The notes under the pieces are model-generated. The model saw only the letters and a list, made by a program, of their open reading frames with translations, was not told where the DNA came from and did no database searches. From a virus: a stretch of 20,321 nucleotides of DNA. A program made the position numbers and the translations under genes. The stretch lies in the UHGV virus genome UHGV-0122335; one strand, 5' to 3'. Positions 4,518-18,840 of this stretch are shown here, in pieces (position 1 is the first letter of the stretch; each line of letters begins with the position of its first letter).

Positions 4518-4531
4518 TGTTATCTCCTCTC

Positions 4532-5227
4532 TTATTTGCCATAGAGCACTTCGGCCGCACTACGCTGGCCTTCATTACCACCGGTGACCATGCCATCTTC
4601 AGACATAGCCTTTCCGATTTTCACGAACGTTTTGACCAGATCAGGGTGATTACCCAGCCCGGTGGTGTTCAGATATTCTTTGAGTTCAGGTGTCCCGAAC
4701 TGGTCAAGCGCACGCTGTGCGGCGCTAAGGTTAGAAATCAACTTGTCGCCACCGATTTCTTTGTCAGCTTTTACATCCGCAGCCCACTGCTCGGTTGTTT
4801 TCTGCCAGGCTTCTGCCTGGCGCTGCTGAACACCTGCCAGAATTTTCGGATAAGCATCAACCAGCTTTTGCGCTTGCTCGTTGGTCAGGTTAAGTTCTCG
4901 CGCCACCGGCTCGAACTCCTTCAACGCTTCTGTATCCAGCTCTACGCCTTCGGCAGCCTGAAACTCGTACTTCTCAGGCGCACCCTCTGGTTTATCGCCG
5001 TCCTTTTTTTCATCCTGCTTATCGTTTTCAGGCTTTTTGTCATCAGCAGGTTTATCGCCATCAGCAACAGGTTGTGGCTTATCACCTTCCTGTTGTGATG
5101 GATCACCAACTGGAGCAGGGTTATCACCTGCAGGCGCTGACGGTTCTGACGCAGCCGGAGCTGCTCCACCATCGACTGGTTGCTCATTGCAAAGACGGCG
5201 ATACAGCAAACGCTCAAATAAATTCAT
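4532..5227 (-). CDS. Scaffolding (capsid assembly) protein, acidic and helical (about 231 aa)
   Basis: ORF track 4532..5233; ATG at 5227 with AGGAG 5 nt upstream; highly acidic D/E/K/P-rich N-terminal half; located between portal and capsid genes. Confidence 0.55.
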   Translation of the reverse strand: MNLFERLLYRRLCNEQPVDGGAAPAASEPSAPAGDNPAPVGDPSQQEGDKPQPVADGDKPADDKKPENDKQDEKKDGDKPEGAPEKYEFQAAEGVELDTEALKEFEPVARELNLTNEQAQKLVDAYPKILAGVQQRQAEAWQKTTEQWAADVKADKEIGGDKLISNLSAAQRALDQFGTPELKEYLNTTGLGNHPDLVKTFVKIGKAMSEDGMVTGGNEGQRSAAEVLYGK

Positions 5228-5229
5228 GA

Positions 5230-5526
5230 TCACTCCTGTTCACTGGCCTCTTTGGCCATCTTCAAATACTGTTCAGGGCAATGCGCCATAACGCGCTGAA
5301 ACAGTTCCAGCGCCAGATTGCGTTGCCCCTCATTAAATGCCATTGCCATAGCGTCCATCGGTGAGATAGCGGAAAACACCCGGCCTTTCTCCAGCACAGA
5401 CCAGACAACGCGACGCCCCTGTTCACTGCTCATGACAAAGCGAATGTCATCAATTTCACGCTGTGCCATGTCACGTTGCTTACGGGCGTTTTCTTCTTTC
5501 AGTTGATCGTCTTCGTAATCTGTCAT
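5230..5526 (-). CDS. Hypothetical protein (98 aa) between portal and scaffold
   Basis: ORF track; its ATG overlaps the portal stop (ATGA), suggesting translational coupling. Confidence 0.55.
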   Translation of the reverse strand: MTDYEDDQLKEENARKQRDMAQREIDDIRFVMSSEQGRRVVWSVLEKGRVFSAISPMDAMAMAFNEGQRNLALELFQRVMAHCPEQYLKMAKEASEQE

Positions 5527-7202
5527 TGTGATTGCCCACCCTGACCACTAACTGCATTCGCCATAGCTGACAAAACACTCGGATCCGAAGTTTTAGCTTC
5601 GCTTAGCGTCTTGGCACCCTGTGCCGCCGCCATCCCCATCGCCATCATTTGTTGCTGCTGTTGTTGCTGTGCCCGTTGCTGGCGAGCCTGCTCAACCTGT
5701 TCCTGCGGAACAATGACGGTTGGAGACACTCCGGACATATCAGCGAATGCATCGATCGCCTGATCAACGTTGAGTTTGTCGAAAGCTTCTGGTTTCGCTT
5801 GCGCAAGTTGACCAATGAAGTTAACCGTGGACGCCAGACTGGACAGGCCGATAGACTTCTGCGCCTGAGCCATGACAGAAATGTATTCGACCTTCAGGGG
5901 CATACCTTCCATCGCGTCAGGCGGTGGCGGCAGCATGTTTTTACGCACCATCATCGAGAAAGCGCGGTCAATGAGAGGATTAAGACATTCGTCGTTCAGA
6001 CGCTCCAGAACCGGCCCCAACATCAGAAGCTTTTCTTCTTTCATTTCGATCACCGCTTCAACAGGCATTGAGCGGGTATTGATGTTCTGCAACATCATGA
6101 ACAGATCGACGAAGTAGGCGCTGTTAATGATTTGACGAGTGTCCTGAATGTCTGCCACCAAATCTGCTGTACTGGGGTTAACCAGATAAGCAGGCCTGAA
6201 GCCATCCTGACCAGTAATCTGATCGATATACGTGATGTCGCCAGGAAGAAGGGAGGCGCGCTGATTCTTGAGGGAAGTCGGAGCAACCATCGGCGGATTG
6301 GTGGCTTTATCAATCAACTGCGACTTGCGCTTCTGGAGAAGCTGCAATGCCTTAACAGGTCCAAGCGCCAGCATACCCGGGCATGATGATCCATAAACAT
6401 CTTCGCCGTTAACTTCCCAGCGCGGAGCCATAATTGGAAACTCATCGAATCCGGACTCGCGCAACAACTTGTCGTTATCGCCACCAACCTCGTAATAAAC
6501 CGATTTGAATGGCTTGTTCTTGCTATCCAGCTTCGATGCATCGCGGTCAATGTTCGGGTAAACCGAATGCATCACTTCAATCCACTTCTCGTAGGTGCCG
6601 CTTTCCCACATGCTTTTTACGGATTCGCTGACGTTATTTAGCCCGAACTCCTGAACAAGCTGACGAACAGTCATAGAGAACTTGCGAAAACAGGTGTCCA
6701 CACTGCCACGAGGTGAGTTAGCCAGGTAGTAACTGCCTATCGGGAATGGCATTGTGCGAATGATGTCCTCGTCATCCTCCAGCACTGCCATTGCACCAGT
6801 GCTGTATGTGCCGAGGCTTCCGTATAACTGCGGCAGAGACTGATAGAGATTCGACTTATTGAACATATCGTTCATGCGGTTCTGCACCGCCTCAAGCCAC
6901 AACTTAACAGGGCCATAATCCATCATTTCAGGATCTGGCGTAGCCAGGCGAAACCACGGACGCGCGGGGCTTGTGATGCCTGACATCATGCCGCTGGCGA
7001 GAGTGCGCGCCGCCATAGTCCCGGTCGAATCAATAATACGTGTATTGCGTCGATCGTTACGGTTGACCTCAGAAGTCAGAAAGCGGGAACCACGCGGGTT
7101 GATGTAATCACTCAACTCGCGCCAGTGCGGCTCGAACGATTGACGCTCGCTTTCAAGTTGTGCGAACTGTTTGTTCAATCGCTCTTTAGTTGTTTCCGCC
7201 AT
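5523..7202 (-). CDS. Portal (head-tail connector) protein, 559 aa, with Q/A-rich C-terminal tail
   Basis: ORF track; ATG at 7202 with GGAG RBS; size and position after terL; C-terminal poly-Q/Ala-rich tail resembles T7-type head-tail connector proteins (recollection, not a search). Confidence 0.7.
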   Translation of the reverse strand: MAETTKERLNKQFAQLESERQSFEPHWRELSDYINPRGSRFLTSEVNRNDRRNTRIIDSTGTMAARTLASGMMSGITSPARPWFRLATPDPEMMDYGPVKLWLEAVQNRMNDMFNKSNLYQSLPQLYGSLGTYSTGAMAVLEDDEDIIRTMPFPIGSYYLANSPRGSVDTCFRKFSMTVRQLVQEFGLNNVSESVKSMWESGTYEKWIEVMHSVYPNIDRDASKLDSKNKPFKSVYYEVGGDNDKLLRESGFDEFPIMAPRWEVNGEDVYGSSCPGMLALGPVKALQLLQKRKSQLIDKATNPPMVAPTSLKNQRASLLPGDITYIDQITGQDGFRPAYLVNPSTADLVADIQDTRQIINSAYFVDLFMMLQNINTRSMPVEAVIEMKEEKLLMLGPVLERLNDECLNPLIDRAFSMMVRKNMLPPPPDAMEGMPLKVEYISVMAQAQKSIGLSSLASTVNFIGQLAQAKPEAFDKLNVDQAIDAFADMSGVSPTVIVPQEQVEQARQQRAQQQQQQQMMAMGMAAAQGAKTLSEAKTSDPSVLSAMANAVSGQGGQSQ

Positions 7203-7216
7203 TTCAATGACTCCGG

Positions 7217-7423
7217 TTACTGACCAAGCAGCGTTTTACCGCTGGTATTAGCGGTTGATGTGTCGCCCTGAGAACCGGTAAGCAGCGTAGAACTACGACC
7301 AGCAGCAGCGCGACGGCGACGAGTTTCTTCGTCGCGGGCATCAACAACGGCGGCATCCTGCTCCTGTGGTGCTGCCTGAACTTCTGGTGTTGCAGGCACT
7401 GATGGTGAGCTACCCATGCACAT
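7217..7423 (-). CDS. Small acidic S/T/A-rich hypothetical protein (68 aa) upstream of portal
   Basis: ORF track; ATG at 7423 preceded by GGAGTCATTGAT; stop lies 15 nt before the portal ATG. Confidence 0.45.
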   Translation of the reverse strand: MCMGSSPSVPATPEVQAAPQEQDAAVVDARDEETRRRRAAAGRSSTLLTGSQGDTSTANTSGKTLLGQ

Positions 7424-7491
7424 ATCAATGACTCCGTACGCAATTAAATTATTACCAATTTAACCACATATGATTTATTTATCGTAGACAG

Positions 7492-7520
7492 TTGACATTT
7501 AATGCACGAATTATTACCTT
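7492..7520 (+). promoter_or_regulatory. Candidate sigma70 promoter (TTGACA at 7492-7497 with a weak -10) upstream of the tRNA island
   Basis: Consensus -35 hexamer TTGACA; the downstream -10 is poor (TATTAC/TACCTT region); overlaps the palindrome at 7514..7528. Confidence 0.3.
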
Positions 7521-7528
7521 TAAGGTAA
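7514..7528. repeat. 15-bp near-palindrome TTACCTTTAAGGTAA (copy 1 of 2)
   Basis: Seen directly; a second copy TTACCTTGAAGGTAA lies at 8138..8152; a further palindrome GGTTACTAACC lies at 7545..7555. Confidence 0.5.
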
Positions 7529-7857
7529 CCAAAGAGTTCATTCCGGTTACTAACCTGACTGGCTTGTCGTTAAATTGAACAGGTGGAGTGAGCTTTTATT
7601 TTGAGCAGTACGGCGTATGGCACATGCGACGATAGCGGTCTGGATACGTTTAAGGGGCACCCTCCCTTGCTCGGGCAAACGAACCAGGTAGCCGGAATGT
7701 GCAAGTCGAGCGGTTTTATTCCGCGCACGGGGATTCACCATCCCGGCGATTCGGTGTGACGCCTCGGAAGAGACGAGGGTACAACGATGAGAGCATTGGA
7801 TATTAGCGGGCTGTTCCACCCTACCTGATATCGAGCCAAACCAGTGCTCTCAGCGTT

Positions 7858-7934
7858 GTGGCATTAGCTCAGTTGGACAGAGCAACCGCCTTCTAAGCGG
7901 TTGGTCGCAGGTTCGAATCCTGCATGCCACGCCA
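7858..7934 (+). tRNA. tRNA-Arg (anticodon UCU, reads AGA), CCA encoded
   Basis: Hand-folded cloverleaf: acceptor GTGGCAT/ATGCCAC, D-stem GCTC/GAGC, anticodon stem ACCGC/GCGGT with loop CTTCTAA, T-arm GCAGG-TTCGAAT-CCTGC, discriminator G plus CCA. Phage-borne tRNA-Arg(UCU) is common in lambdoid and Stx-type phages. Confidence 0.9.
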
Positions 7935-7977
7935 GAATCACGCCTAAGGACCGTGATGCCAGAAGTTCCAGGGGATT

Positions 7978-8019
7978 GGCGGTGACTGTTTCCCTTGAAG
8001 GACTATCACCGCCCTTTTT
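7978..8019 (+). terminator. Putative intrinsic terminator downstream of the tRNA
   Basis: GGCGGTGA...TCACCGCC 8-bp stem (long structured loop) followed by CTTTTTTA. Confidence 0.45.
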
Positions 8020-8097
8020 ACAGCAGGACGCCATTGCGATGACTTCATGCTGTAAACCAGTACAGCCACGGAAGGCATAACTCATTGCTTCCAGTTC

Positions 8098-8121
8098 GCC
8101 CGGTTCGCCGGGCATTTTTTT
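8098..8121 (+). terminator. Intrinsic (rho-independent) terminator
   Basis: GCCCGG-ttcg-CCGGGC hairpin followed by ATTTTTTT. Confidence 0.65.
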
Positions 8122-8137
8122 GCCTGGTGACTGAACG

Positions 8138-8152
8138 TTACCTTGAAGGTAA
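8138..8152. repeat. 15-bp near-palindrome TTACCTTGAAGGTAA (copy 2), 33 nt upstream of the moron ATG
   Basis: Seen directly; overlaps a candidate promoter (GTGACT -35 at about 8127, TAAGAT -10 at 8150-8155). Confidence 0.5.
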
Positions 8153-8184
8153 GATAACAAAAACATTTAACATCTGGTTTAGAC

Positions 8185-8790
8185 ATGTTCGAGCAATTTA
8201 AAGAGATCGCATCATCGGCTATTAGCACAGCGTCAGAGAGAGTCCGCAACCCAGCACTTGGGGCATTTGTGTTTTCGTGGTGTTCTTTTAACTGGAATCC
8301 ACTATTATTTTTATTCTTCAGTAAGTCAGGAATTGAAGAAAAAATAAATTATATATCTTCCCATAGTGATGCGTACCACTCACTCTTATATCCAGCTTTA
8401 TGTGCATTCGCGCTGTGTGTAATAGTTCCATGGTTTAACAATATAGTGGTGATGTTTCAAAAAATTCCACTACAGAACATCGATAACTTCAAACACAACA
8501 AAAGCCTCAGGGATGTTAAAAACGCCATAGAATTGCGTAAGCTTGAGGCACAAAGGGACATTACATACGACAGAGTTAAGGTTGAGTTTGAGTCTGAGAT
8601 TCAATTCTATAAAAATGATTTAATCAAGCACCAAGAGTCTTTGAATTCTTTTTTGCAGGAAAGAGATTCCCTTATTGAAAAAATAATGGCGCTTGAAAAA
8701 GAACTTGCAGAAGAAAAAATAAAATCCAATACCAGAATTGCAAATAAGTTTAACTCAAGGAACAATCGCAACACAGACAATGCTGCTTAA
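8185..8790 (+). CDS. AT-rich moron: predicted membrane protein with two hydrophobic segments and a C-terminal coiled-coil (201 aa); function unknown
   Basis: ORF track; strongly AT-rich relative to flanks; opposite strand to the structural operon; hydrophobic stretches LGAFVFSWCSFNWNPLLFLFF and LLYPALCAFALCVIVPWFNNIVVMF followed by a K/E-rich heptad-like region; no obvious SD sequence. Confidence 0.6.
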   Translation: MFEQFKEIASSAISTASERVRNPALGAFVFSWCSFNWNPLLFLFFSKSGIEEKINYISSHSDAYHSLLYPALCAFALCVIVPWFNNIVVMFQKIPLQNIDNFKHNKSLRDVKNAIELRKLEAQRDITYDRVKVEFESEIQFYKNDLIKHQESLNSFLQERDSLIEKIMALEKELAEEKIKSNTRIANKFNSRNNRNTDNAA

Positions 8791-8794
8791 AACT

Positions 8795-10264
8795 TTATGA
8801 AAACGGATCGTACTCAGTAATAGCTTTCCCCTGCTGCTGCCGTGGGTCATTAGTTTTCTTGGCTACCGGGAAGGCGAACGTTAGCAGCAGCGCATCACCT
8901 TTACCCGGCGAACGCCCAAGTCGCTCTTTGATATCTTCCTTCGGTTCGATAACGATTTTACCGTCCACGCGAACTTTGTACTCTGCCGTCGACAGGTCGT
9001 CTGCTGTTTCCTGGTCATCCAGCATCCCGCCCAGCCTCAGCCATGTCTTGCATGAGTTGAACATCTCCCCACGCTTGTTGAGCATCTGCGGGTCAGTAGA
9101 CGCGCCACCGAACGGAACAAGTTGCCATGTACGACCCCAGCCGTCACCGATTGACTTCAGACCAGTTCCGTAACCGAAGTCGATGAACACTGCGTCAGCC
9201 TGGTACTGGTCTTCAAAGTCAGCGATACGCTTCGCCATTATCAGATCGTCAGTGGTCTTGTTGCCAGTCCACAGCACCTTACTGTGCAGCCCCTGCCGCA
9301 GGTATATCACAGCGTCATCAACTCCGGAGTATGCCGGGTCAACGCCGATTATCACCGGAGCATGTGCAACCTGCGCAGCGGTTACCACCCGTTTCATTGC
9401 CTCATCAGTAAGACCGGTAGGGATAAACTGCAATTCAGATGCATCAGGGAATATGCCGCGCACACGGATTTTAACGAAGTCGCTGTCTTCCCCGTAGTCA
9501 TCAACCCATTTCTGCAACTGCTGTTTGTTAGTACCTTCCACCGTCCGGCTGTCAATCTGCGCAGTTTTCCAGCGGTGTTTGTATTTGCGGAAACATTCGC
9601 GAAAACGCCCGGTATTACGTGTAGGGTTTCCGAACGCCACCCAGATAATCTCAGTGTCTTCGTCCGTAAGCGCACCCTCAGCAACTTCCCACACCAGATC
9701 CGCAATGTTCGACGCTTCATCGAATACCACGATGATGCGTTTGCGCTCGTTGTGTAGTCCGGCGAATGCCTCAGTGTTGTGCTCAGACCAGGGGATTGCG
9801 TCAGCTCGCCACCGCTTGTCGTGCCCAGGATCATTGCTGTACATCGCAGTAGCGGTACAGGTAAACCAGTCTTTCGTGATAGCAAGGTTCGACCACTTGA
9901 TAATTTCCGGCCAGGTCTTCGTTCGTAGCTGGTTGTCGGTGTTGGCGGTCACCACGACCTTACAATCCTCGCAAGTGGACATGCCCCAGTTGATCAGCAT
10001 TGAGATGAATGCGGATTTACCAATACCGTGACCAGAAGCGCGTGCCAGCATAAGCGGCTGATAGCGCGTCTCTGGATTCTGCAGGTGATCACGTATCTCT
10101 CGGAACGCATCAGCCTGCCACTGACGTGGGCCGGTAGCATGTGCCAGTTCAGTCCCCTCTTCCCCCCACGGGAACGCATAGAGGGCATAGCCAAGCGGAT
10201 CGTGAGTGAACCCTGCAATATCCTCGATCAACTGCTCTTCAGGAGATAACGCTGTATCTGTCAC
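8795..10264 (-). CDS. Terminase large subunit (489 aa)
   Basis: ORF track; GTG start at 10264 overlapping the terS stop (GTGA) with AGGATGG upstream; size and position immediately downstream of the small subunit and upstream of portal. Confidence 0.8.
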   Translation of the reverse strand: MTDTALSPEEQLIEDIAGFTHDPLGYALYAFPWGEEGTELAHATGPRQWQADAFREIRDHLQNPETRYQPLMLARASGHGIGKSAFISMLINWGMSTCEDCKVVVTANTDNQLRTKTWPEIIKWSNLAITKDWFTCTATAMYSNDPGHDKRWRADAIPWSEHNTEAFAGLHNERKRIIVVFDEASNIADLVWEVAEGALTDEDTEIIWVAFGNPTRNTGRFRECFRKYKHRWKTAQIDSRTVEGTNKQQLQKWVDDYGEDSDFVKIRVRGIFPDASELQFIPTGLTDEAMKRVVTAAQVAHAPVIIGVDPAYSGVDDAVIYLRQGLHSKVLWTGNKTTDDLIMAKRIADFEDQYQADAVFIDFGYGTGLKSIGDGWGRTWQLVPFGGASTDPQMLNKRGEMFNSCKTWLRLGGMLDDQETADDLSTAEYKVRVDGKIVIEPKEDIKERLGRSPGKGDALLLTFAFPVAKKTNDPRQQQGKAITEYDPFS

Positions 10265-10857
10265 TGATTACCATCCTGACGTTCTTTGAGTCGCTTCCTG
10301 GCTGCCGCTATGCGATCAGCAATTGTCACATTCACATTAACATCCAGGCGTTCTTTGAATGCATTGACGTCGACGTGCTTACCAATCAGTTCGAGGTTCT
10401 TCACCTTGTCAGGCCATTTAATTTTTTTGAGAATTGTCTCTATCGAATCCTCGTTCATGTTCATGATGGTCGATGACAGATCAAAGCCACTAAGCGTAGT
10501 GCGCCAGATTTTCGGCCACTCGCGGATTGGCTTAAGGCTCCCATCGTCATTGAGGATATCAATCACGTCCATCTGGTCGATCTCCACCAGGCGCATGAGA
10601 ACGTAATCGGCACTGACGCGCATTCGTTTGTTGCGCTCCTCCATCAACTCGGCAATCCGTTTTTGAATGCGTTCATCGCGCATCATGACACTGGCTTTAA
10701 CTGCCGCTGTATTTGGGGAGAATCCTGCGTTAATCGCTGCCTGAGTCTGGTTTTCAGGCGTTTTGATGTATGACTGGCAATAAGCCTCCTGCATTGCGGT
10801 TAGTGGCTTAAATTGCGTTGATTTGCGTTTATAGGTTTTAGGTTCAGCAGGCATCAT
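10261..10857 (-). CDS. Terminase small subunit (start uncertain: 10857, 10854 or upstream to 10935)
   Basis: ORF track 10261..10935; ATG-ATG at 10857/10854 preceded by GGTGG; basic helical protein directly upstream of and coupled to terL. Confidence 0.6.
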   Translation of the reverse strand: MMPAEPKTYKRKSTQFKPLTAMQEAYCQSYIKTPENQTQAAINAGFSPNTAAVKASVMMRDERIQKRIAELMEERNKRMRVSADYVLMRLVEIDQMDVIDILNDDGSLKPIREWPKIWRTTLSGFDLSSTIMNMNEDSIETILKKIKWPDKVKNLELIGKHVDVNAFKERLDVNVNVTIADRIAAARKRLKERQDGNQ

Positions 10858-10900
10858 AACCACCATGGTAATTGTTACCGTTGTGGTAATAGTACCATGC

Positions 10901-10926
10901 AAAATAAAGCCGCCATAGTTGGCGGC
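10901..10926 (-). terminator. Intrinsic terminator on the minus strand just upstream of terS
   Basis: GCCGCCA-acta-TGGCGGC hairpin followed by UUUAUUUU in the minus-strand transcript. Confidence 0.5.
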
Positions 10927-11010
10927 AGTATTCAAAACCCATCAAATTCATCATGCATAATCTACTCGTGACATGTCACACTATTAATTTCGTTTCATGC
11001 CAGCCTTTAG

Positions 11011-11322
11011 TCACCCAGCATTGCGAGTCACCATTACACGGGCATGAATTAACGGGAACTCTCTCGCCGCACTTACCGCAAAGTTTCTGCTGATCGATTT
11101 TATACGCCCGCGCACACGTGCATCATCCTGGCGGATCAGCAGCGCGATGTACTCGGCCATTTCATAGGGATCGCGACCAGGGCGCCGGGCGGCGCAGTTC
11201 CGCGCCAGCATTTCCTGCTCCTGCTTATCCAGCACCAGTTCAATTTTGCGCTCACCGGCGGCGGACTGCCGAGCGCGCTGCGCGGCTTTGCGTTCTGCGG
11301 GGGATTTAGCCACGAATCGCAC
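11011..11322 (-). CDS. Hypothetical Arg-rich protein (103 aa by track, GTG start with poor RBS)
   Basis: ORF track only; no convincing RBS; lies in the junction region between the early-left genes and terS. Confidence 0.3.
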   Translation of the reverse strand: MRFVAKSPAERKAAQRARQSAAGERKIELVLDKQEQEMLARNCAARRPGRDPYEMAEYIALLIRQDDARVRGRIKSISRNFAVSAAREFPLIHARVMVTRNAG

Positions 11323-11428
11323 TCCACGCCAGATTGATTAATGACTCCCAGGTAATATAAACCCGGATACCAGCAACCAGGCCGAAACCAATCACCATGG
11401 CATAAAGCAGAGCGTTGCACTTGTTCAT
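11306..11428 (-). CDS. Small hydrophobic protein (40 aa), likely membrane peptide
   Basis: Hand-translated (MNKCNALLYAMVIGFGLVAGIRVYITWESLINLAWSAIRG); GGAGG RBS; its ATG overlaps the stop of the upstream DUF551-like gene (TGATG). Below the ORF-track length cutoff. Confidence 0.4.
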   Translation of the reverse strand: MNKCNALLYAMVIGFGLVAGIRVYITWESLINLAWSAIRG

Positions 11429-12195
11429 CACTTCACCTCCTGCGGCGGTTCTGGTAGCGGCATCCAGTGGGTTACTTTCGATGCCGGTTCTTCCCCATCG
11501 TCAGTAACTGCCCACCATTTGTTTCTCGACCAATCGTAATACCCTTCGAAGGTATCGCACTCAGTCCAGCCGTAAGACTTACCCCAACACCAAACATACT
11601 GTTTATCGTTCGGCATTCGCTCACTACAGCTTATCCAACCATCCGGAGTTGCCGGAGTTGGTCCATCGAATTCGGGCATGTCAGGACCTTTTCTGATAGC
11701 TTTAGCCAGCTCCAGCGGGTCATCGTAAAGCCAGTCGCCAGTTTGTGGGTGATTTGCTTCTGCAAGCTGCGCAGCCCATTCAAGACCATCTTTTTGACCT
11801 TGGAGATAATCAAGCGGCAACTCTTCATGATTACTTGCAGGTTCGGCACTATGAAGCATGGCAGCGCGGCAGGCGTTCCAGCCTCTTACCCCTGCAATAG
11901 CGGCAACCGCATCAACCGCGTACATGCTAAGAGGATTAGGAATTGGTTTTTCTTCCGGTACTACTGGCGCTGGAGGGGTGGCGTAGAGTGGAACTCCTCC
12001 CCCTCCACCAGAAAATTCATTGCGAGCGTTATACTCACGACCATCTGCGTCATCACGCATCCACGCCACCGGCTCTGCTTCCAGCGATGCCAGAGCAATT
12101 TCATAAGCACGGCGCTCAATATTGTCTCGCACGTCCAGGCTGCCGATTCGCTCTTTGATTTCTTTAATCAGTTCTTTGTCGGTAAAAGTGGTCAT
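11428..12195 (-). CDS. DUF551-like prophage protein (255 aa; Trp-rich C-terminal domain)
   Basis: ORF track; ATG at 12195 with AAGGAGAG RBS; C-terminal W-rich region (GWISCSERMPNDKQYVWCWGKSYGW...THWMPLPEPP) resembles the DUF551 domain common in lambdoid prophages (recollection). Confidence 0.6.
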   Translation of the reverse strand: MTTFTDKELIKEIKERIGSLDVRDNIERRAYEIALASLEAEPVAWMRDDADGREYNARNEFSGGGGGVPLYATPPAPVVPEEKPIPNPLSMYAVDAVAAIAGVRGWNACRAAMLHSAEPASNHEELPLDYLQGQKDGLEWAAQLAEANHPQTGDWLYDDPLELAKAIRKGPDMPEFDGPTPATPDGWISCSERMPNDKQYVWCWGKSYGWTECDTFEGYYDWSRNKWWAVTDDGEEPASKVTHWMPLPEPPQEVK

Positions 12196-12196
12196 G

Positions 12197-13015
12197 TCAC
12201 TCTCCTTTGATGCGAATGCCAGCGTCAGACATCATATGCAGATACTCAACTGCATCCTGAACCCATTGACCGCCAATCCCGTAATAGCGATGCGTAATGA
12301 TGTCGATAGTTACTAACGGGTCTTGTTCGATTAACTTCCGCAGAAACTCTTCCAGGTCACCAGTGCAGTGCTTGATGACAGGAGTTTTCCCAGGATGGCG
12401 AACAACAAGAAACTGATTTCCGACTTCACGGACTTCGTTGCTTTTCAGTTCTGCAATGCGCTTCTCTGAGGCTTCCAGCTTCTCTCGCATATCGTCAACG
12501 TACTCGACCAGAGAACCGCCAGCAGGAATTTCGCACTCCTCGACCAGTTGGAAGTAGATATCAGCTGCGGCCCGTGTGTTGCTATGCCTAGCGTCGCCCA
12601 TCTCACCTTCACGAAGAGCATCGCGTTCGGCGGTAAGATTGGCTATTTTGCTGTCTTTGCCTTCCAGCTCAACGCGCAGCTTCCCTACCGTTAGCGCAAT
12701 ATCCTCGTTCTCCTGGTCGCGGCGTTTGATGTATTGCTGGTTTCTTTCCCGTTCATCCAGTAATGCCAAGACGGTAGCCGGATTAGCTGCGGCGATGAAT
12801 TCAGCATTGGCCTGCTGTTCCATTTGGAAATCTTCATCGAAACCGCTTTCTGGATGCGCTCCTTCAATTCTGCAAATAGGAATATATCCAGCAACTTCAC
12901 GATGAATTAGCGCATCATCACCATCAAATCGGCTCTCTCCATATTCGAGCGACCATACACCACACGTTGCTTTTTCTGCCTTGGCACGCAGTGCCTGATA
13001 GTCAATCTTGCTCAC
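12197..13015 (-). CDS. Ead/Ea22-like protein (272 aa)
   Basis: ORF track; GTG start at 13015 with AGGAGG 6 nt upstream; central coiled-coil; typical early-left accessory protein of lambdoid phages (family assignment from recollection). Confidence 0.55.
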   Translation of the reverse strand: MSKIDYQALRAKAEKATCGVWSLEYGESRFDGDDALIHREVAGYIPICRIEGAHPESGFDEDFQMEQQANAEFIAAANPATVLALLDERERNQQYIKRRDQENEDIALTVGKLRVELEGKDSKIANLTAERDALREGEMGDARHSNTRAAADIYFQLVEECEIPAGGSLVEYVDDMREKLEASEKRIAELKSNEVREVGNQFLVVRHPGKTPVIKHCTGDLEEFLRKLIEQDPLVTIDIITHRYYGIGGQWVQDAVEYLHMMSDAGIRIKGE

Positions 13016-13089
13016 TGGTTGCCTCCTGCTTTTCTGCCTTCAACACCATGCGAGAACCATCATCCAGCTCCCACGCGATCTCACCACCT

Positions 13090-13239
13090 TCAGCCATGAC
13101 CAGTCGCCTCATTGGTAACATCACGACCTGGATCATTGCCAACGCGCATACGTCCACCTTCAACATCGCGCATTTTTGCCAGCATGATAGTTTTTGATAG
13201 CGGTGAAAAACCAAGCTGTAGTCGTGCTGAATTACTCAC
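13090..13239 (-). CDS. Small hypothetical protein (49 aa, GTG start)
   Basis: Hand-translated; same start context as Ea22 (17-nt repeat CTCACTGGTTGCCTCCT giving AGGAGG, a GTG start and an overlapping upstream TGA). Overlaps the track ORF 13002..13214 in another frame, so only one of the two may be real. Confidence 0.3.
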
Positions 13240-13403
13240 TGGTTGCCTCCTTTGCGCCACGTCGCATTCAGATATCTGTTGTCGTTAACAGAACCGAAAC
13301 TCTTTCTCTTAAGCAATTCCTCTCTCGATGGCATTGGCTTTACGCGTTGGCGAATAATCATTTCTGCCGGAAGAATGCCGGGATTGTATGCAAGTCCTCT
13401 CAT
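13236..13403 (-). CDS. Small hypothetical protein (55 aa)
   Basis: C-terminal part of track ORF 13236..13556; ATG at 13403 preceded by GAGGAA; the longer track version would overlap the upstream 98-aa gene by 143 nt. Confidence 0.45.
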
Positions 13404-13413
13404 GGTAAATTCC

Positions 13414-13710
13414 TCAGTCATTACTGATAGCGCCATAGCGTGAGCGGTAATTACGCAGGCGCGGGTCGATATATTCAGGGAAGTTGGTATATGTGGCTTT
13501 GCGGAATGGTCGGATTGATGTCTGGTAAATTCGCTCGCGTTCTTCTTTCTCTGCAAGCCATATACAATGGCGAAATTCCTTTTCCTCTTTCGTTTCCTGC
13601 GGTAGCGACATTATCCGGTCGTAGTTTTTCCTGAATTTATCCAGCACCTCCGATACGGAATTGCCGGAACAGCGGCGCGGGTCATCCGCACCATACTGAG
13701 GCGCTGGCAT
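13414..13710 (-). CDS. Hypothetical protein (98 aa)
   Basis: ORF track; ATG at 13710 with AGGAG RBS; directly downstream of ssb. Confidence 0.6.
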
Positions 13711-13723
13711 GATTTTCTCCTGA

Positions 13724-14230
13724 TTAAATTGCGTGAATAGCGTGACGAGGGAAGGGGAGAGTTACTGGTGCAAAGGGTATATCGTCGTCAAAATCCATCG
13801 GAGGTTCGTTGTGTTGTGCTGGTGATGATTGCTGCTGTGGCTTCTGTGATTGCCTGCTGGCTGCTTGTTGTTTGCTGTCGCCAATGCTGCCAAGCATTTG
13901 CATCACGCCATTAATTCCGACATGAACCTCGGTTGTGTAACGGTCTTGCCCTGACTGGTCTTTCCACTTTCTGGTTCTCAGCATTCCCTCGAAATAAATC
14001 TGATCACCTTTTTTCACATACTGCCCCACGACCTCAGCCAGTTTCCCGGATACAGCAACACGATGCCATTCAGTCAATTCCTTTTGCTCGCCAGTATTTT
14101 TATCTCGCCATTGTTCTGACGTGGCTATTGTCAGGTTAGCGAACGCTGTTCCTGATGGTGAGTATCGAACTTCCGGGTCTTGTCCTACCCGACCAAGGAT
14201 AATCACCTTATTTACGCCTCTGCTTGCCAT
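13724..14230 (-). CDS. ssb: Single-stranded DNA-binding protein (168 aa)
   Basis: ORF track; N-terminal OB-fold motifs typical of SSB ([16 protein letters not shown]...WHRV) and acidic C-terminal tail ending DDDIPF; ATG immediately follows the recombinase stop codon. Confidence 0.85.
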
Positions 14231-14938
14231 CTATGCCGCCTGTTTTAGTTCGTTAACTCTGATGTTCATTACCTGAACGCATTTAGCCTGCGCCTCCTCG
14301 TTGCCAGCCATTAATTGCCAGTCACGCTGATAACGCTCGATGAGTTTTTTCTTGTCAGTTTCTGTTGACGCATAATCGCTGAAGTCTTTCAGGATTTGTT
14401 CGCAGTCAACCGATGGAGATTTCTGGTTGGTATTTTCTGGTGATGGTTTGTTATCTGATGCTGGGATTGCCCATCCCGGCAGCGATGGAGGGGACCAGTA
14501 AAATCCTGTTCCATCCTTCAGTTTTGCCCTGTGCCACCCCTGCTTTTTATCGAGAGATGTTTGTGCGAAACCTTCCTCAAGGTTATACAGATACCGACCG
14601 ATTCCCCACTGAACGGCAGCACGCTTCATTGCACCGGAACGACCACCTTTGACGGCTTCTACCTGCGTGTTTTCAGCAGCATCCCATTTGGTTACCCATT
14701 CGGAATCAATCTTGATTGATATGCCGCATTCAACTCCGCCGTTGTTGGGAATATCGCGGTATTCATTGCGCCATCCTGCTTTGCCGCAAACATCGTCCAG
14801 GCGTTTCATGATTGCCCGGTTCGTGACATAAGCCAGCACCATAGCCCACACCTTGCCATCGCGTGTTTTACCGCTTTGCTGTATTCGCCATTCGATATCT
14901 TCAGGGCTGAATGGCTCATCGAATTTGTTCAAATCCAT
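14231..14938 (-). CDS. Phage single-strand annealing recombinase (ERF/Rad52-like; exact family not resolved)
   Basis: ORF track 235 aa; ATG at 14938 with GAGGTGA RBS; directly coupled to ssb; central KRAAVQWGIGRYLY-type motif; sits where lambda carries bet/exo. Confidence 0.65.
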   Translation of the reverse strand: MDLNKFDEPFSPEDIEWRIQQSGKTRDGKVWAMVLAYVTNRAIMKRLDDVCGKAGWRNEYRDIPNNGGVECGISIKIDSEWVTKWDAAENTQVEAVKGGRSGAMKRAAVQWGIGRYLYNLEEGFAQTSLDKKQGWHRAKLKDGTGFYWSPPSLPGWAIPASDNKPSPENTNQKSPSVDCEQILKDFSDYASTETDKKKLIERYQRDWQLMAGNEEAQAKCVQVMNIRVNELKQAA

Positions 14939-14946
14939 AATTCACC

Positions 14947-15118
14947 TCAGAATGGACACGGCCCAAGGAAATAACGCTGATTTAATACTTCGACTCGGGA
15001 CAAATTAAGGCATACCCGCATTCCTTCGCGGTCACCATTATGGCGATACCAGAGAGCTTTCTGCGTGTACATGCGTCTCTGTAACTTGCTCTCCTTCACT
15101 GTGGTTGCAAGTGACATG
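14947..15118 (-). CDS. Small hypothetical protein (56 aa)
   Basis: Hand-translated; GGAG RBS 6 nt upstream of the ATG; overlaps the next small ORF by 80 nt in another frame, so uncertain. Confidence 0.3.
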
Positions 15119-15196
15119 AATATCTCCTTCGTTACCGATTAATTCTTTCATCTGACGAATGAATTCTTCGTCTGACCAGTTATCTGTAAAACTCAT
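15039..15196 (-). CDS. Small acidic hypothetical protein (52 aa)
   Basis: Hand-translated; AGGAA RBS; its ATG overlaps the stop of the kil-like ORF (ATGA). Confidence 0.4.
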
Positions 15197-15345
15197 TTCC
15201 TGCGATACCACGGAAGGTTGATAGCTGATTTCATCGCTTTATTTGCTTCAAGCCACATTTTTGAATCACCAATAAATCTGGCTATTACTGCTTTGTTCTG
15301 TGCAGCACGAAGCATCTGGTGATTGATGGCTATTTCATTGCGCAT
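15193..15345 (-). CDS. kil: Kil-like small protein (50 aa)
   Basis: Hand-translated (MRNEIAINHQMLRAAQNKAVIARFIGDSKMWLEANKAMKSAINLPWYRRK); GAGGT RBS; lies immediately after cIII as in lambda. Similarity to lambda Kil is from memory and unverified. Confidence 0.45.
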   Translation of the reverse strand: MRNEIAINHQMLRAAQNKAVIARFIGDSKMWLEANKAMKSAINLPWYRRK

Positions 15346-15461
15346 AATAAGACCTCAACTCTTTTCCATCCGTCACGTAATTTACGGGTGATTCGTTCAA
15401 GTAAAGATTCATTTAGTTGGAAGGCACCCATGCGAGCGCCTCCCGCGATTGCGTAAATCAT
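15330..15461 (-). CDS. cIII: cIII (inhibitor of FtsH/HflB), 43 aa
   Basis: Hand-translated (MIYAIAGGARMGAFQLNESLLERITRKLRDGWKRVEVLLCAMK); contains the conserved lambda cIII core ESLLERITRKLRDGWKR; AAGGAA RBS. Confidence 0.7.
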   Translation of the reverse strand: MIYAIAGGARMGAFQLNESLLERITRKLRDGWKRVEVLLCAMK

Positions 15462-15485
15462 GGGTGGTTCCTTATGTTGGTTTTA

Positions 15486-16454
15486 TTAGTAGGTTATTTT
15501 TGTTGCGAATACTTCGCCTTTTACGATGGCTGTTATGATATTTTTAGCAACATCTTCTGATGCGCCAACCTTGATAAGGTCAGCAAGTATTTTGTTATTT
15601 ACTTCTTTCCGGTGATCTTTATCCTTTGCTCTACGCTCTTCTTCGTCCTTGATTCTTTTTTCTTCTGCTATTCTGGCTTGCTCTTTTGCTTCAGCATCGC
15701 GACGGATTTGTTCAGCCTCCTCCTGTGCTTTTCTGCGTTCTGCTTCAATTGCTGCCTGCTTTTCTCTTTCAGCTCGTTCTGCTGCCTCTTTTGCTTCGCG
15801 CTGTGCTCGTTGCTCGGCTTCAATGCGTTCACGCTCTGCACGTTCTGCTGCGGCCTTAGCTTCTGCTTCTCGCCTTGCTGCTGCTTCAATTTCGGCTTTT
15901 GCCTTTGCTTCGGCTTCTGCTCTGGCTTTCTCTTCAGCTTCTCTTTTTAATCGTTCTTCATGCTCTCGCTTTTCCTGCTCCGCTTTGAGTCTTGCCTCTT
16001 CTCTTTGGCGGTCAAATTCGCGATCCATCAAAATCGCTATTTCATGGTCAGACTCAATTTGCTTTGCGAGAGCTTCAGCTGCTGCCTTAGCTTCTTCTTC
16101 GGCTTTAATCCGTGCCTGTTCCTCCTCATAATCAGTAAGAGGCTGGCGTGCCTTGGCTTTCAGCTCATCAAGTCGATCACGCACTGTCTTGCGGTTGGCA
16201 TCAATTAGCTTTGGAATTCCCTTCAGTTCAGCAACAAGGTCTTTGCCAAGACCATCGAGATATGTTTTCGTCTGCGCAACTTTATACGCCAGAGAAGCGA
16301 TCTCCTTTCTGCCCTTTGCCGTTGTGATATCAGGCACAAAGGACATAACTTCACGTTCAACCTTTTGGAGAATTTCTTCAATCTGGTCGGCAGACTGAAA
16401 TACAGTCATTGCATTTGCTTTTTCAATAACAACTAAATCTGTTACTTCACTCAT
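15486..16454 (-). CDS. Highly charged coiled-coil protein with E/A/K/R-rich repeats (322 aa from ATG 16454)
   Basis: ORF track 15486..16550; the in-frame ATG at 16454 carries a strong GGAGGATAT RBS; a roughly 120-residue central stretch of EAxAKA/ERxxRE-type repeats (low-complexity DNA); N- and C-terminal regions appear globular. Confidence 0.65.
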   Translation of the reverse strand: MSEVTDLVVIEKANAMTVFQSADQIEEILQKVEREVMSFVPDITTAKGRKEIASLAYKVAQTKTYLDGLGKDLVAELKGIPKLIDANRKTVRDRLDELKAKARQPLTDYEEEQARIKAEEEAKAAAEALAKQIESDHEIAILMDREFDRQREEARLKAEQEKREHEERLKREAEEKARAEAEAKAKAEIEAAARREAEAKAAAERAERERIEAEQRAQREAKEAAERAEREKQAAIEAERRKAQEEAEQIRRDAEAKEQARIAEEKRIKDEEERRAKDKDHRKEVNNKILADLIKVGASEDVAKNIITAIVKGEVFATKITY

Positions 16455-16466
16455 ATATCCTCCATC

Positions 16467-16496
16467 AAAAAAAATTGCCCTCACACTGGAGGGCAA
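16467..16496 (-). terminator. Intrinsic terminator on the minus strand upstream of the coiled-coil gene
   Basis: TTGCCCTC-cagtgt-GAGGGCAA hairpin followed by U8 in the minus-strand transcript. Confidence 0.6.
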
Positions 16497-16588
16497 AGAA
16501 GATTTCCAATAATCAGAACAAGTCGGCTCCTGTTTAGTTACGAGCGACATTGCTCACATAGCAGACTCGTAAATCTGCTATAGGCGCT

Positions 16589-16746
16589 TATTCGCATCGC
16601 ATGACAACATCAAATTTTTCGAGATTACTTTGTCGCAACAATCCTTCTTCTACTCGGTCAGCTTTTCTATAATTATCAAATTCGAAATGTTTAATTACTT
16701 CTTTCGTTTCTCGCTCTATAACTTCAACGATGTATTTCTTATTCAT
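16589..16746 (-). CDS. Small AT-rich hypothetical protein (51 aa)
   Basis: Hand-translated (MNKKYIVEVIERETKEV...); its ATG overlaps the stop of the upstream gene (TAATG). Confidence 0.4.
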
Positions 16747-17015
16747 TACTCATCACCTATGGCTTTTTTGATAGCTTCGCGAGCCTTATTAACAGCTCCA
16801 TACCATTCTGGATATGTTGTCGTTGTTCTATTTTCGGCTTGCTTAAGTAATAGCTGAAGTGCTTCAAGTAAATCCGGTGCAGCCATAGCTAATCTTCCAT
16901 TTGCTACGGCCTCTTCTGTTTCTTTACCGGATAGGGCCATTCCCGGGTGTGAAAATAAAATTAAGCCTGCAAAATTGGCTTCTCGCCAATTTTTCCTAGT
17001 ACCTTTAAATTCCAT
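16746..17015 (-). CDS. Hypothetical protein (89 aa)
   Basis: ORF track; ATG at 17015 with AGAGG RBS. Confidence 0.55.
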   Translation of the reverse strand: MEFKGTRKNWREANFAGLILFSHPGMALSGKETEEAVANGRLAMAAPDLLEALQLLLKQAENRTTTTYPEWYGAVNKAREAIKKAIGDE

Positions 17016-17054
17016 GTTAGCCTCTGTTGTTTATGCCAAAAATAAAGGCCACCA

Positions 17055-17306
17055 TCAGGCAGCCTTTTTGTAAATGTTGCAGGTATCAAGTAAGTAATTA
17101 GATGGAGCGCCATAAATTATGAATTCATCGTTTGTCGGGTCCATCTCCATCTCTTGGCCTATTGCCATTCTTGCGTCAGTGTCATCAGAGGCGAAGCATA
17201 AAACAGCCCACGCACCCATTGTTTTAAAAAGAACTGCAATTGGCTGTGGTTTTACTGAATTTGCGTTAGTGCGAAAATCATAAATCGCACTTTCATGAAA
17301 TTCCAT
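17055..17306 (-). CDS. Hypothetical protein (83 aa)
   Basis: ORF track; ATG at 17306 with GAGGTGAG RBS; first gene after N. Confidence 0.55.
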   Translation of the reverse strand: MEFHESAIYDFRTNANSVKPQPIAVLFKTMGAWAVLCFASDDTDARMAIGQEMEMDPTNDEFIIYGAPSNYLLDTCNIYKKAA

Positions 17307-17314
17307 ATCTCACC

Positions 17315-17647
17315 TCAATCGTAATAAGCTGGAATTGATTTTCCGCGTTGCTTCTGGCGGCCTGAGCAGGTCAAACCCATTTCACTACGTGGCTTGCTGT
17401 ACCATGTGCGCTGATTCTTGCGCTCAATACGTTGCAGGTTGCTTTCAATCTGTTCGTGGTATTCAGCCAGCACTGTAAGGTCTATCGGATTCAGTGCGCT
17501 TTCTACTCGTGATTTCGGTTTGCGATTCAGCGAGAGAATAGGGCGGTTAACTGGTTTTGCGCTTACCCCAACCAACAGGGGATTTGCTGCTTTCCATTGA
17601 GCCTGTTTCTCTGCGCGACGTTCGCGGCGGCGTGTTTGTGCATCCAT
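17315..17647 (-). CDS. N: Antitermination protein N (lambda-type)
   Basis: N-terminus MDAQTRRRERRAEKQAQWKAANPLLVGVS is the lambda N arginine-rich boxB-binding motif and the protein is near-identical to lambda N over most of its length; AGGAG RBS. Confidence 0.9.
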   Translation of the reverse strand: MDAQTRRRERRAEKQAQWKAANPLLVGVSAKPVNRPILSLNRKPKSRVESALNPIDLTVLAEYHEQIESNLQRIERKNQRTWYSKPRSEMGLTCSGRQKQRGKSIPAYYD

Positions 17648-17845
17648 CTGGATTCTCCTGTCAGTTAGCTTTGGTGATTGGATGGCCGGCGCTGAACCCC
17701 GGCTTACTGGTTAGAGCGCCCGCACTACCAGTGACGCTGTCTTGAGGCGCAGATTGGTTACTGCTTGCCATGAGCGCTGTTTATACATTGGTCGAGCATC
17801 AGCCTGCTCATTCATCCAATCCCAAAGCCTTCTGCTTTGAATGCT

Positions 17846-17875
17846 GCCCTTCTTCAGGGCTTAATTTTTAAGAGC
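17846..17875 (-). promoter_or_regulatory. nutL (boxA plus boxB)
   Basis: The minus strand reads GCTCTTAAAAATTAAGCCCTGAAGAAGGGC, one base different from lambda nutL boxA-boxB as recalled; about 200 nt upstream of N. Confidence 0.8.
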
Positions 17876-17915
17876 ATCACCTTCATGGTGGTTAGTACGT
17901 CCTGCTGATGGCTAA

Positions 17916-17944
17916 ATAGTACGATTTGTACTTTATCGAGTCAA
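17916..17944 (-). promoter_or_regulatory. pL promoter (TTGACT, 17-nt spacer, TACTAT) with overlapping operator
   Basis: Minus-strand -35 at 17944..17939 and -10 at 17921..17916 with 17-nt spacing; correct position upstream of nutL and N. Confidence 0.5.
17918..17932. promoter_or_regulatory. Candidate oL operator: palindrome AGTAC-N5-GTACT
   Basis: Perfect 5+5 inverted repeat overlapping the pL -10 and spacer; related sites occur in the oR region. Confidence 0.4.
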
Positions 17945-18010
17945 TACAAAATGTTCTAAATATAATTAGTTTTTTATAACGCTTTGTATTTAATGGGTTT
18001 ATATTTTTGA

Positions 18011-18039
18011 AAAAGAAAACCCGACGCTAAGGTCGGGTT
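18011..18039 (-). terminator. Intrinsic terminator downstream of cI
   Basis: AACCCGAC-cttagc-GTCGGGTT hairpin followed by UUUUCUUUU on the minus strand, 31 nt after the cI stop. Confidence 0.55.
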
Positions 18040-18069
18040 ATTGTTGTGTGTTTTAGAGTGGTGAGGCTG

Positions 18070-18729
18070 TTAACTAAATGTCTCTTCAGGCCACTGGCTG
18101 GCGATAACTTTCCCTACTACGGAACAGCTATCATTGCATGGAATCATTGGATATTGCGGGTTTAGTGGCTGTAGGAACACCTGACCGCTATCCCTGATCA
18201 GTTTCTTGAAGGTAAACTCGTCACCACCAAGTCTGGCTATGCAGAAATCACCTGGCTCAACAGCCTGCTCAGGGTCAACGAGAATTAACATCCCGTCAGG
18301 AAAGCTTGGCTTGGATCCTGTTGGTGCGGTCATTGAGTTACCTTCAACCTCAAGCCAGAATGCAGAGTCACTGGCTTTTTTGGTTGTGCTGACCCATCTC
18401 TCCGCATCACCTTTGGTAAAGGTTCTAAGCTCAGGCGAGAACATCCCGGCCTGAACATGAGAAAAAACAGGGTACTCATATTGTTTTTTAACGGGGGAAG
18501 ATGAGTATTCGCCAACAGGTGAAAATGTACCGTCGTGGTTGAATGAGACGTTATCAATACCAAGGTATTTAAACACCACACCAATCTCGTCAAGAGATGG
18601 ATGACGAGATCCGCGCAACCAGTGACCAATTCCACCCTGCGTCATACCAAGCTCTTCAGCCAACTTCTCTTGAGTTATGCCGAGCTCTTTCATTCTGGAT
18701 CTAGCCAGTTCATACCATTTCATTTTCAT
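18070..18729 (-). CDS. cI: CI repressor: lambda-like C-terminal dimerisation/autocleavage domain fused to a non-lambda HTH DNA-binding domain
   Basis: C-terminal about 130 aa ([22 protein letters not shown]...[14 protein letters not shown]) are essentially lambda cI; N-terminal about 85 aa differ from lambda. Start taken at MKMKW (18729); the track's upstream extension is probably not translated. Confidence 0.85.
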
Positions 18730-18785
18730 GTCCTTATTATTACGCTCTGTACTAAAACCATCCATGCACAAGATGTATTTTTTGT

Positions 18786-18814
18786 TTGCATTCCAAAAGT
18801 ACATATCGTATTAT
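18786..18814 (+). promoter_or_regulatory. pR promoter (TTGCAT, 17-nt spacer, TATTAT)
   Basis: Near-consensus hexamers with 17-nt spacer about 27 nt upstream of the cro ATG. Confidence 0.55.
18798..18812. promoter_or_regulatory. Candidate oR operator AGTAC-N5-GTATT
   Basis: 9/10 match to the oL palindrome; lies in the pR spacer and -10; a weaker third site ATTAC-N5-GTACT lies at 18739..18753. Confidence 0.4.
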
Positions 18815-18840
18815 TGCCTCATGGTTACTATGGAGGGCAT

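Follow-up and report, generated by a model that had tools for sequence, protein, structure and literature searches.

Comparison of its two arms with complete phage and bacterial genomes indicates that UHGV virus genome UHGV-0122335 is a join of two unrelated Escherichia coli prophage types, each of them ordinary, that share a module of about 1.4 kb. The sequence, referred to here as the window, is the entire 20,321-nt contig ena:ERZ1314698:NODE_438_length_20321_cov_2.71874, a product of short-read metagenome assembly with a k-mer coverage of 2.7. The window had been flagged for a lambdoid pL operon that runs directly into terS, an adjacency that is most likely not a real feature. Our analysis established what each arm is, where the repeat that they share lies and what it consists of, and how both parents are canonically laid out; the origin of the join we infer to be computational, probably an assembly chimera across the shared repeat.

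Nearly all of the genes in the window lie on the minus strand, and a scan of the window against Rfam returned a tRNA as the sole match. The first-pass annotation had described N, cIII, kil, SSAP, ssb, Ea22, and DUF551 leading into terS and terL on a single strand, and gene calls and Pfam matches bear out this order on the minus strand of the contig. It had also remarked on missing int/xis and Q/lysis genes, correctly so within the window: no int, xis, att, Q, or lysis gene is found in its 20,321 nt.

Two prophage arms on one contig

The left arm of the window, from position 1 to about 11650, belongs to a Uetakevirus. Window positions 1 to 11874 align with the Uetakevirus-like Escherichia phage EC.W1-9 at 99.94% identity, with seven mismatches, and more than 20 complete E. 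coli chromosomes match them just as closely; identity of this arm to phiV10, the type member of Uetakevirus, is 96 to 98%. More than 20 complete E. coli chromosomes match positions 1 to 13014 in two pieces at 99.8 to 99.9%. A single match covers at least 80% of positions 9800 to 12300 in 81 complete E. coli genomes, and all 30 of those 81 genomes that are among the matches listed are unbroken from 9800 past 11430. Relative to the group as a whole (Salmonella phage epsilon15 and Escherichia phages phiV10, ZX5, PAS61, and EC.W1-9), window positions 1 to 11874 have the same gene order at 96 to 99.9% nucleotide identity, sharing the tail gene, capsid genes, protease, portal, tRNA-Arg, terL, terS, the terminator upstream of terS, the p55-type regulator, a 40-amino-acid gene, and the 3' end of the DUF551 gene.

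The packaging genes within this arm are colinear with those of Uetakevirus, in the order terS, terL, portal (Head-tail_con), Bbp19, protease, GP7-type capsid protein, and Bbp16. terL (8795 to 10264, minus strand; 489 amino acids) matches PHROG 2, "terminase large subunit" (E value, 4e-52), and its nucleotide identity to phiV10 and EC.W1-9 is 97 to 99.9%. terS (10261 to 10854, minus strand) matches Pfam Terminase_2 (E value, 1e-29) and encodes 197 amino acids from the ATG at 10854, the length annotated in EC.W1-9 and in the contig index alike; an alternative 224-amino-acid open reading frame from a TTG at 10935 would include the terminator. The TerS protein is identical in 80 IMG/VR loci.

In the layout of the family, taken from the phiV10 annotation and from the prophages of Ec55, PD23, and CH10508, int and a leftward early operon are followed by the repressor and a rightward operon. 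The leftward operon contains recombination genes (of the RecE/RecT type in phiV10), AlpA, PerC, and a methyltransferase, and the rightward operon contains a cro-like gene, a DnaT-like O, P, DUF1064, variable eae/Ea22/DUF551 genes, the 40-amino-acid gene, and the p55-type gene. The rightward operon continues into terS, terL, and the head and tail genes, then the lysis genes, and then the attachment site. Uetakevirus thus resembles the window in that terS comes directly after an early operon, and it has its lysis genes and int on the far side of the tail genes. The Q and holin/endolysin genes expected before terS under lambda-type late control are missing from the window, and they are natively absent from that place in Uetakevirus; since the partner on the terS side is a Uetakevirus, their absence upstream of terS is normal here. 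Judged by these layouts, an early operon that abuts terS codirectionally, with no Q/lysis cassette, is the already-known architecture of this family.

The window carries the p55-type regulator gene, the 40-amino-acid gene, and the conserved terminator before terS, an arrangement also present in Ec55, PD23, CH10508, and EC.W1-9. Farther upstream the resemblance ends. The early-right operon that Uetakevirus has upstream of terS (cro-like gene, DnaT-like O, P, DUF1064, and ea genes) is not found there as such; unlike Uetakevirus, the window has a lambdoid pL operon upstream of its Ea22-DUF551 module in place of the repressor, cro-like, DnaT-like O, P, and DUF1064 genes, with N, kil, SSAP, and ssb where the family layout leads one to expect O, P, and DUF1064.

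The right arm, from about 13015 to 20321, is lambdoid. Its P22-like pL operon (13002 to 17647, minus strand), recognized by Pfam assignments and by 98.6 to 99.3% identity to the prophage that E. coli EC11 carries at sbcB, comprises N (17315 to 17647; Pfam N36), Y8K6-like and TolA-like genes, cIII (15330 to 15461), kil (15193 to 15345), a Rad52-type SSAP gene (14231 to 14938), ssb (13724 to 14230), anti-RecBCD, DUF2737, and DUF7446, all on the minus strand; DUF7446 is split by a frameshifting 17-bp deletion at 13109. A pattern search located a lambda-type nutL boxB, GCCCTGAAGAAGGGC, at 17846 to 17860 on the minus strand and a lambda-type nutR boxB at 19082 to 19096 on the plus strand (2 matches versus 0.05 expected). 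On the minus strand, positions 18070 to 18804 encode a cI-type repressor with HTH_3 and Peptidase_S24 domains in Pfam; cro, cII, and an HNH gene diverge from it on the plus strand to the end of the contig. The components of a lambdoid pL region, namely, cI, N with the nutL boxB, cIII, kil, and recombination and ea genes, are therefore present on one strand. The xis/int/att end of such an operon is not found in the window; relatives that share its Ea22 allele have xis/int/att wherever the contig extends that far.

Window positions 11611 to 20321 match the sbcB lambdoid prophage of E. coli EC11/MS14385 at 98.6 to 99.3%, except for one 430-bp patch at 92%, and the order of that prophage is canonical: int, xis, DUF4752, DUF551, Ea22, DUF7446, DUF2737, anti-RecBCD, ssb, Rad52, kil, cIII, N, cI, and cro. 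P22-like lambdoid prophages with Lederbergvirus-type early regions (the EC11 sbcB prophage, vB_EcoP-683R2, Sf6, and HK633) share with window positions 11611 to 20321 the pL genes, Ea22, the 5' part of DUF551, cI, cro, cII, and the lambda-type nutL and nutR boxB sites. They differ from the window in what follows the operon, which in the window runs on into Uetakevirus genes and not into DUF4752, xis, int, and att.

The native boundary upstream of terS

The junction had been placed at 10.9 to 11.4 kb, between the end of the pL operon and terS, and attributed there to illegitimate or homologous recombination. The sole point in favor of this placement is that the interval is partly noncoding and holds a terminator and palindromes. 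The interval proved to be native Uetakevirus DNA, continuous at 99.94% identity with EC.W1-9 and colinear at 99.9% with dozens of prophages. Complete phage genomes that cross 10.9 to 11.4 kb in the same order (EC.W1-9, HEMP4, phiv142-3, PAS61, O157 typing phages 9 and 10, and TL-2011b) refute a breakpoint at this position, the intergenic part is retained across 47 distinct Uetakevirus sequences, and lambdoid homology starts only at 11611. We therefore rejected a breakpoint within 10.9 to 11.4 kb, which these comparisons leave with practically no probability.

Both a terminator and a palindrome, claimed to lie between DUF551 and terS, were found. A terminator scan identified an intrinsic terminator at 10900 to 10926 on the minus strand, about 45 nt upstream of terS, consisting of the stem-loop GCCGCCA-ACTA-TGGCGGC (10926 to 10909) followed by TTTATTTTG. 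The stem forms in RNA folding (z = -3.7) and is unchanged in 47 of 47 distinct upstream sequences. The stretch that separates the terminator from the start codon of terS contains two 10-bp direct repeats on the minus strand (10865 to 10892): CTATTACCAC at 10883 to 10892 and the degenerate copy CAATTACCAT at 10865 to 10874. In most of the 47 distinct Uetakevirus upstream sequences, taken from IMG/VR, both copies read CTATTACCAC, and conservation among all 47 extends over the 150 nt that precede terS, including the terminator stem and these repeats. The 12-bp palindrome GTGACATGTCAC (10968 to 10979), seen in the sequence and by comparison, overlaps the stop codon (10978 to 10976) that closes the regulator gene when it is read in its full-length frame. 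The phiV10 record has its ends at the equivalent of window position 10975/10976, within this palindrome.

The two small open reading frames of this stretch had been called doubtful; their PHROG matches show both to be conserved genes. The larger (11011 to 11313, minus strand; 100 amino acids) belongs to the family of phiV10 p55 and epsilon15 gp49 and matches PHROG 536, "transcriptional regulator" (E value, 1e-31). Comparison of frames identified the window copy as a -1 frameshift allele, in which the Cys-rich C-terminal domain is open in the other frame to 10976. The 740 homologues are mostly 112 amino acids long, and PGAP labels the gene "frameshifted" in CH10508. The exact allele occurs in 1857 index blocks, with a Uetakevirus context in 24 of the 24 contigs that were read. 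The 100-amino-acid product had no match in Pfam, NCBIfam, or PDB sequences, and its AlphaFold2 model (pLDDT, 57.5) was too poor for a fold search. The smaller gene (11306 to 11428, minus strand; 40 amino acids) matches PHROG 5525 (E value, 3e-29) and adjoins the regulator gene in Uetakevirus prophages; its hydrophobic sequence suggests that it encodes a small membrane protein.

The arrangement bears on how Uetakevirus late genes may be expressed. Early-right transcription would be expected to reach the regulator gene and then to meet a strong, invariant terminator some 45 nt short of terS. Immediately 5' of this terminator is a weak sigma-70-like site (GTGACA, 18-nt spacer, CATGAT), and the gap between the terminator and terS is too short for a conventional promoter. 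With no room for a promoter there, late expression would presumably need read-through or activation involving the p55-type protein.

The shared Ea22-DUF551 module

Alignment to complete phages and prophages located the break in synteny at 11.65 to 13.0 kb, 0.2 to 2 kb past the flagged stretch, within a 1404-bp Ea22-DUF551 module (11611 to 13014) that was delimited by its identity in both phage contexts. The module takes in most of the DUF551 gene (11428 to 12195, minus strand; 255 amino acids; Pfam DUF551) and the Ea22 gene (12197 to 13015, minus strand; 272 amino acids; Pfam Ead_Ea22). The 3' part of DUF551, to 11610, is Uetakevirus specific, and from about 11652 the sequence is of lambdoid type. 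At single-nucleotide polymorphisms (SNPs), the window carries Uetakevirus alleles at 11648 and 11651, and from 11709 and 11867 onward it departs from the alleles of EC.W1-9; because the alleles switch away from the Uetakevirus type within it, the DUF551 gene is chimeric. Only two contigs, both from metagenomes, encode exactly this DUF551 protein. Homology to EC.W1-9 ends at 11874 and returns only over 12663 to 13014, at 96.6%.

The module is at home in both parents. The exact Ea22 protein is encoded in six canonical lambdoid contigs in addition to the window and one 2546-bp metagenome scaffold (L017). In the six lambdoid contigs, Ea22-DUF551 is followed by DUF4752-xis-int where the contig reaches that far, and three of the six continue to int or to the flanking chromosome on the sbcB or dsdC side. 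Identity of the module between the window and the lambdoid contigs that continue to xis/int is 99.3 to 99.8%. The same module is found in OODE01000796.1 (IMGVR_UViG_3300045988_015862), with Uetakevirus O, P, and DUF1064 upstream, at 99.5% identity to EC.W1-9, and the 40-amino-acid gene, the regulator gene, and terS downstream; this copy is 99.86% identical to that of the EC11 lambdoid prophage over 1404 bp. When IMG/VR and JGI metagenomes were scanned for the DUF551 switch pattern, OODE01000796.1 was the only contig found, and its context is that of a canonical Uetakevirus.

A single clean crossover at 11652 to 11708, between an EC.W1-9-like and an EC11-like parent, was considered first. Because the exact Ea22 allele occurs in lambdoid contigs and the whole module occurs in a Uetakevirus contig, we relaxed the switch point given by the SNPs to 11652 to 12850. 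Read in this way, the window is a sequence that enters the module from the Uetakevirus side and exits on the lambdoid side. Since the module points the same way as pL in lambdoids and the same way as terS in Uetakevirus, any join through it, whatever its origin, gives a pL operon running into terS. The earlier suggestion of recombination between lambdoid prophages thus holds insofar as the genomes of two temperate phages are joined through homology and fails in the identity of the partner on the terS side, which is a Uetakevirus and not a lambdoid phage.

Origin of the join

A search for the pL-to-terS join in 5,426 complete E. coli genomes and 50,697 phage records did not find it; no single place in them covers both sides. 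In the 80 IMG/VR loci whose terS is identical, no N, cI, Rad52, ssb, or anti-RecBCD gene lies upstream of it. All of those with at least 5 kb of upstream sequence carry the Uetakevirus repressor, O, P, and DUF1064, except the rearranged loci L064 and L090, the former with Stx-phage-like replication and nin genes upstream of terS. From the other side, 0 of 80 loci with an identical Rad52-type SSAP have Uetakevirus genes or terS downstream. The only other hybrid contig is the 2546-bp scaffold L017, which comes from another sample and covers window positions 10801 to 13329. The two contigs disagree at 11709 and 11891, both of which are polymorphic among the repeat copies compared, and the switch point of L017 lies at 11652 to 11708, versus 11892 or later in the window.

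Were the join biological, one route to it would be RecA-type recombination between inverted Ea22-DUF551 modules of two prophages in one E. coli chromosome, with the Uetakevirus at guaA and the other, a P22-like lambdoid, at sbcB or close to dsdC. The 165 to 550 kb between them would be inverted, the lambdoid pL arm would be placed next to the Uetakevirus terS, and the reciprocal junction would lie elsewhere. Suitable chromosomes exist: CH10508, Ecol_881, and EC19 carry both prophage types with matches to the window on opposite strands, so that the repeat copies are inverted and a real inversion would give exactly the window contig. The positions of the prophages agree as well, in that phage ZX5, a Uetakevirus, integrates at the 3' end of guaA (PMC9782041), the Uetakevirus prophage of CH10508 sits between guaA and yfgI, and the lambdoid prophages lie at sbcB or on the dsdC side. 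Prophage-mediated inversions are documented in E. coli O157:H7, where co-resident prophages with inverted homologous segments could likewise swap arms; however, those rearrangements were mapped with long reads or optical maps and involve repeats of at least 5 kb and 98% identity on either side of Ter, whereas the join in the window is known from a short-read contig and a 1.4-kb repeat (PMC8743559). That the join was assembled in two samples also speaks for an inversion, but the two switch points would then need two independent inversions, each of which became dominant. Neither junction, including the predicted reciprocal one, was found in any of the 5,426 complete E. coli genomes. On the K-12 map, guaA, argW, and sbcB all lie on one replichore, and asymmetric inversions within one replichore are rarely fixed, which makes a fixed inversion less likely. 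On balance we consider an inversion unlikely, although it retains an appreciable share of the probability.

A viable hybrid temperate phage, in which a lambdoid immunity and early region in flipped orientation replaced the early region of a Uetakevirus, seems to us quite improbable. In such a phage, N-modified RNA polymerase from pL would run into the regulator gene, read through the terminator at 10909 to 10926, and continue into terS and the packaging/morphogenesis operon. The parts are in place, since lambda-type N and both boxB sites are intact and the Uetakevirus regulator gene, terminator, and terS, also intact, follow downstream in the same orientation, and if the contig were real, N acting with the intact nutL and nutR boxB sites could supply the read-through at the terminator. 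A flipped replacement is topologically possible because both early regions are divergent operons, and another early-region replacement beside the same terS exists in L064. However, this scenario requires a second, unseen crossover past the end of the contig, its layout occurs in no phage record and in 0 of the 160 IMG/VR loci examined, DUF7446 on the lambdoid side carries the frameshifting 17-bp deletion, and the 2.7x coverage speaks against active replication. If it were correct, late genes would be under direct N control without Q in a cross-family hybrid.

Misassembly had been named beforehand as an outcome that would undo the claim of a novel junction, and it is the explanation that we favor. 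At 2.7x coverage, the assembler probably passed into the repeat from Uetakevirus sequence and out of it into lambdoid sequence. The switch lies inside a module that is 99.4 to 99.9% identical in the two contexts, and at 1404 bp, the repeat is probably longer than the insert of the short-read library, if typical library sizes are assumed. The window and L017 differ in switch point as they would if paths through a collapsed repeat were chosen arbitrarily; if biological, the difference would imply two independent events, each having become dominant. As in other repeat-induced chimeric contigs of short-read metagenomes, the join falls in a repeat shared by two elements that likely co-occur, the flanks match separate canonical genomes, coverage is low, and the join is seen only in metagenome assemblies. 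The window differs from them in that two separate assemblies show the same kind of join, which is known here from contigs and not from reads. Weighing against a chimera, the assemblies of two different samples (the window and L017) span the entire repeat from Uetakevirus-specific to lambdoid-specific DNA, a third assembly, L007, takes the path of the window as far as 12707 and shares the private SNP of the window at 11891, and sequence comparison makes it clear that ea22/DUF551 exchange between the two phage types is natural. Assemblers, moreover, usually break at unresolved repeats and seldom misjoin them.

Should the pL-to-terS join be real nevertheless, it represents a familiar form of homologous exchange and would add one more prophage-mediated inversion to those on record, or else a cross-family hybrid with late genes under N antitermination. 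The significance of the window is mainly cautionary. Ea22/DUF551 "ea" modules are near-identical in unrelated temperate E. coli phages, which makes them both substrates for recombination and sites at which short-read assemblies break or misjoin, and an unusual operon fusion in a metagenome contig of low coverage calls for comparison with both parental layouts before a new architecture is claimed. That the zone upstream of terS is an assembly break hotspot is a further point in favor of a chimera here. Of 80 Uetakevirus contigs, 20 end 0.06 to 2.2 kb upstream of terS; L007 ends at 12707, and L015, a contig with 50x coverage, stops at 12074.

A frameshifted and mobile regulator gene

Upstream of terS, on the minus strand at window 10976-11313, lies a small gene of the phiV10 p55/epsilon15 gp49 family (PHROG 536), which also occurs in comparison loci L181-L184 and in L001 (38766-39104). 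Members of this p55-type family are mostly 112 aa long and end in a Cys-rich C terminus (CxxC...CPC...C); a -1 frameshift reduces the window copy to a 100-aa allele. The other frame is open throughout the Cys-rich domain, as far as the TGA at 10978-10976. This allele is very common, being found in 1857 index blocks, and is also carried by EC.W1-9, a sewage-derived Uetakevirus-like phage record. Among 100-aa alleles in diverged relatives, at least four distinct -1 events were recognized, all within the same short linker. Such repeated frameshifting could reflect recurrent inactivation of the gene, or it could mark a site of slippage or recoding.

A homologue with 75% identity is located downstream of ssb in the lambdoid pL operon of another comparison locus (L118, ~13634). 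Like Ea22 and DUF551, the p55-type gene moves between Uetakevirus and lambdoid phages.

Surroundings of terS and terL

Two IMG/VR contigs, L064 (IMGVR_UViG_651053022_000007, 92.8 kb) and L090 (70.7 kb), encode the same terS without the Uetakevirus early operon (region 1-10600 of each). Upstream of terS, the former carries Stx-phage-like genes (IstB-like, DUF1627, QueH, and DUF968-RusA) instead of that operon, whose place in the latter is taken by tail-fibre, invertase, and Mom genes and then DUF1064. Other rearrangements upstream of this terS thus occur in assemblies. In the window, the conserved terminator is separated from the start codon of terS by a stretch with two 10-bp direct repeats (10865-10892), a candidate pac-related or regulator-binding site; both copies read CTATTACCAC in most relatives.

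A 201-aa gene (8185-8790, plus strand; PHROG 4780; function unknown) separates terL from the portal region as a reverse-orientation insert, a slot occupied by a different gene in each of phiV10, the type member of Uetakevirus, and the prophages Ec55 and PD23. A tRNA-Arg gene (anticodon TCT; 7858-7934, plus strand) is oriented against the morphogenesis genes, is likewise annotated in related prophages, and is overlapped by a 100-aa minus-strand ORF (7864-8166), residues 18-100 of which match PHROG 4647.

Sequence differences and the contig end

A 17-bp deletion at window 13109, absent from each of the eight related sequences in the comparison, is bordered by GCC microhomology and cuts the DUF7446 gene into ORFs of 49 and 31 aa; it reflects either a genuine lesion or an assembly error at low coverage. 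Across more than 10 kb, the window differs from EC.W1-9 and the Uetakevirus-side metagenome contig L007 solely by four substitutions within 8 bp at 1921-1928 (CAACATAG versus AAAGTTAT), with one further SNP at 3221, and these differences represent either a multinucleotide variant or an assembly error.

In the lambdoid arm, an HNH endonuclease gene (19480-19908, plus strand; weak HNH_3 match) occupies the interval from cII to replication gene O, and the end of the contig coincides exactly with the start of O in relatives.
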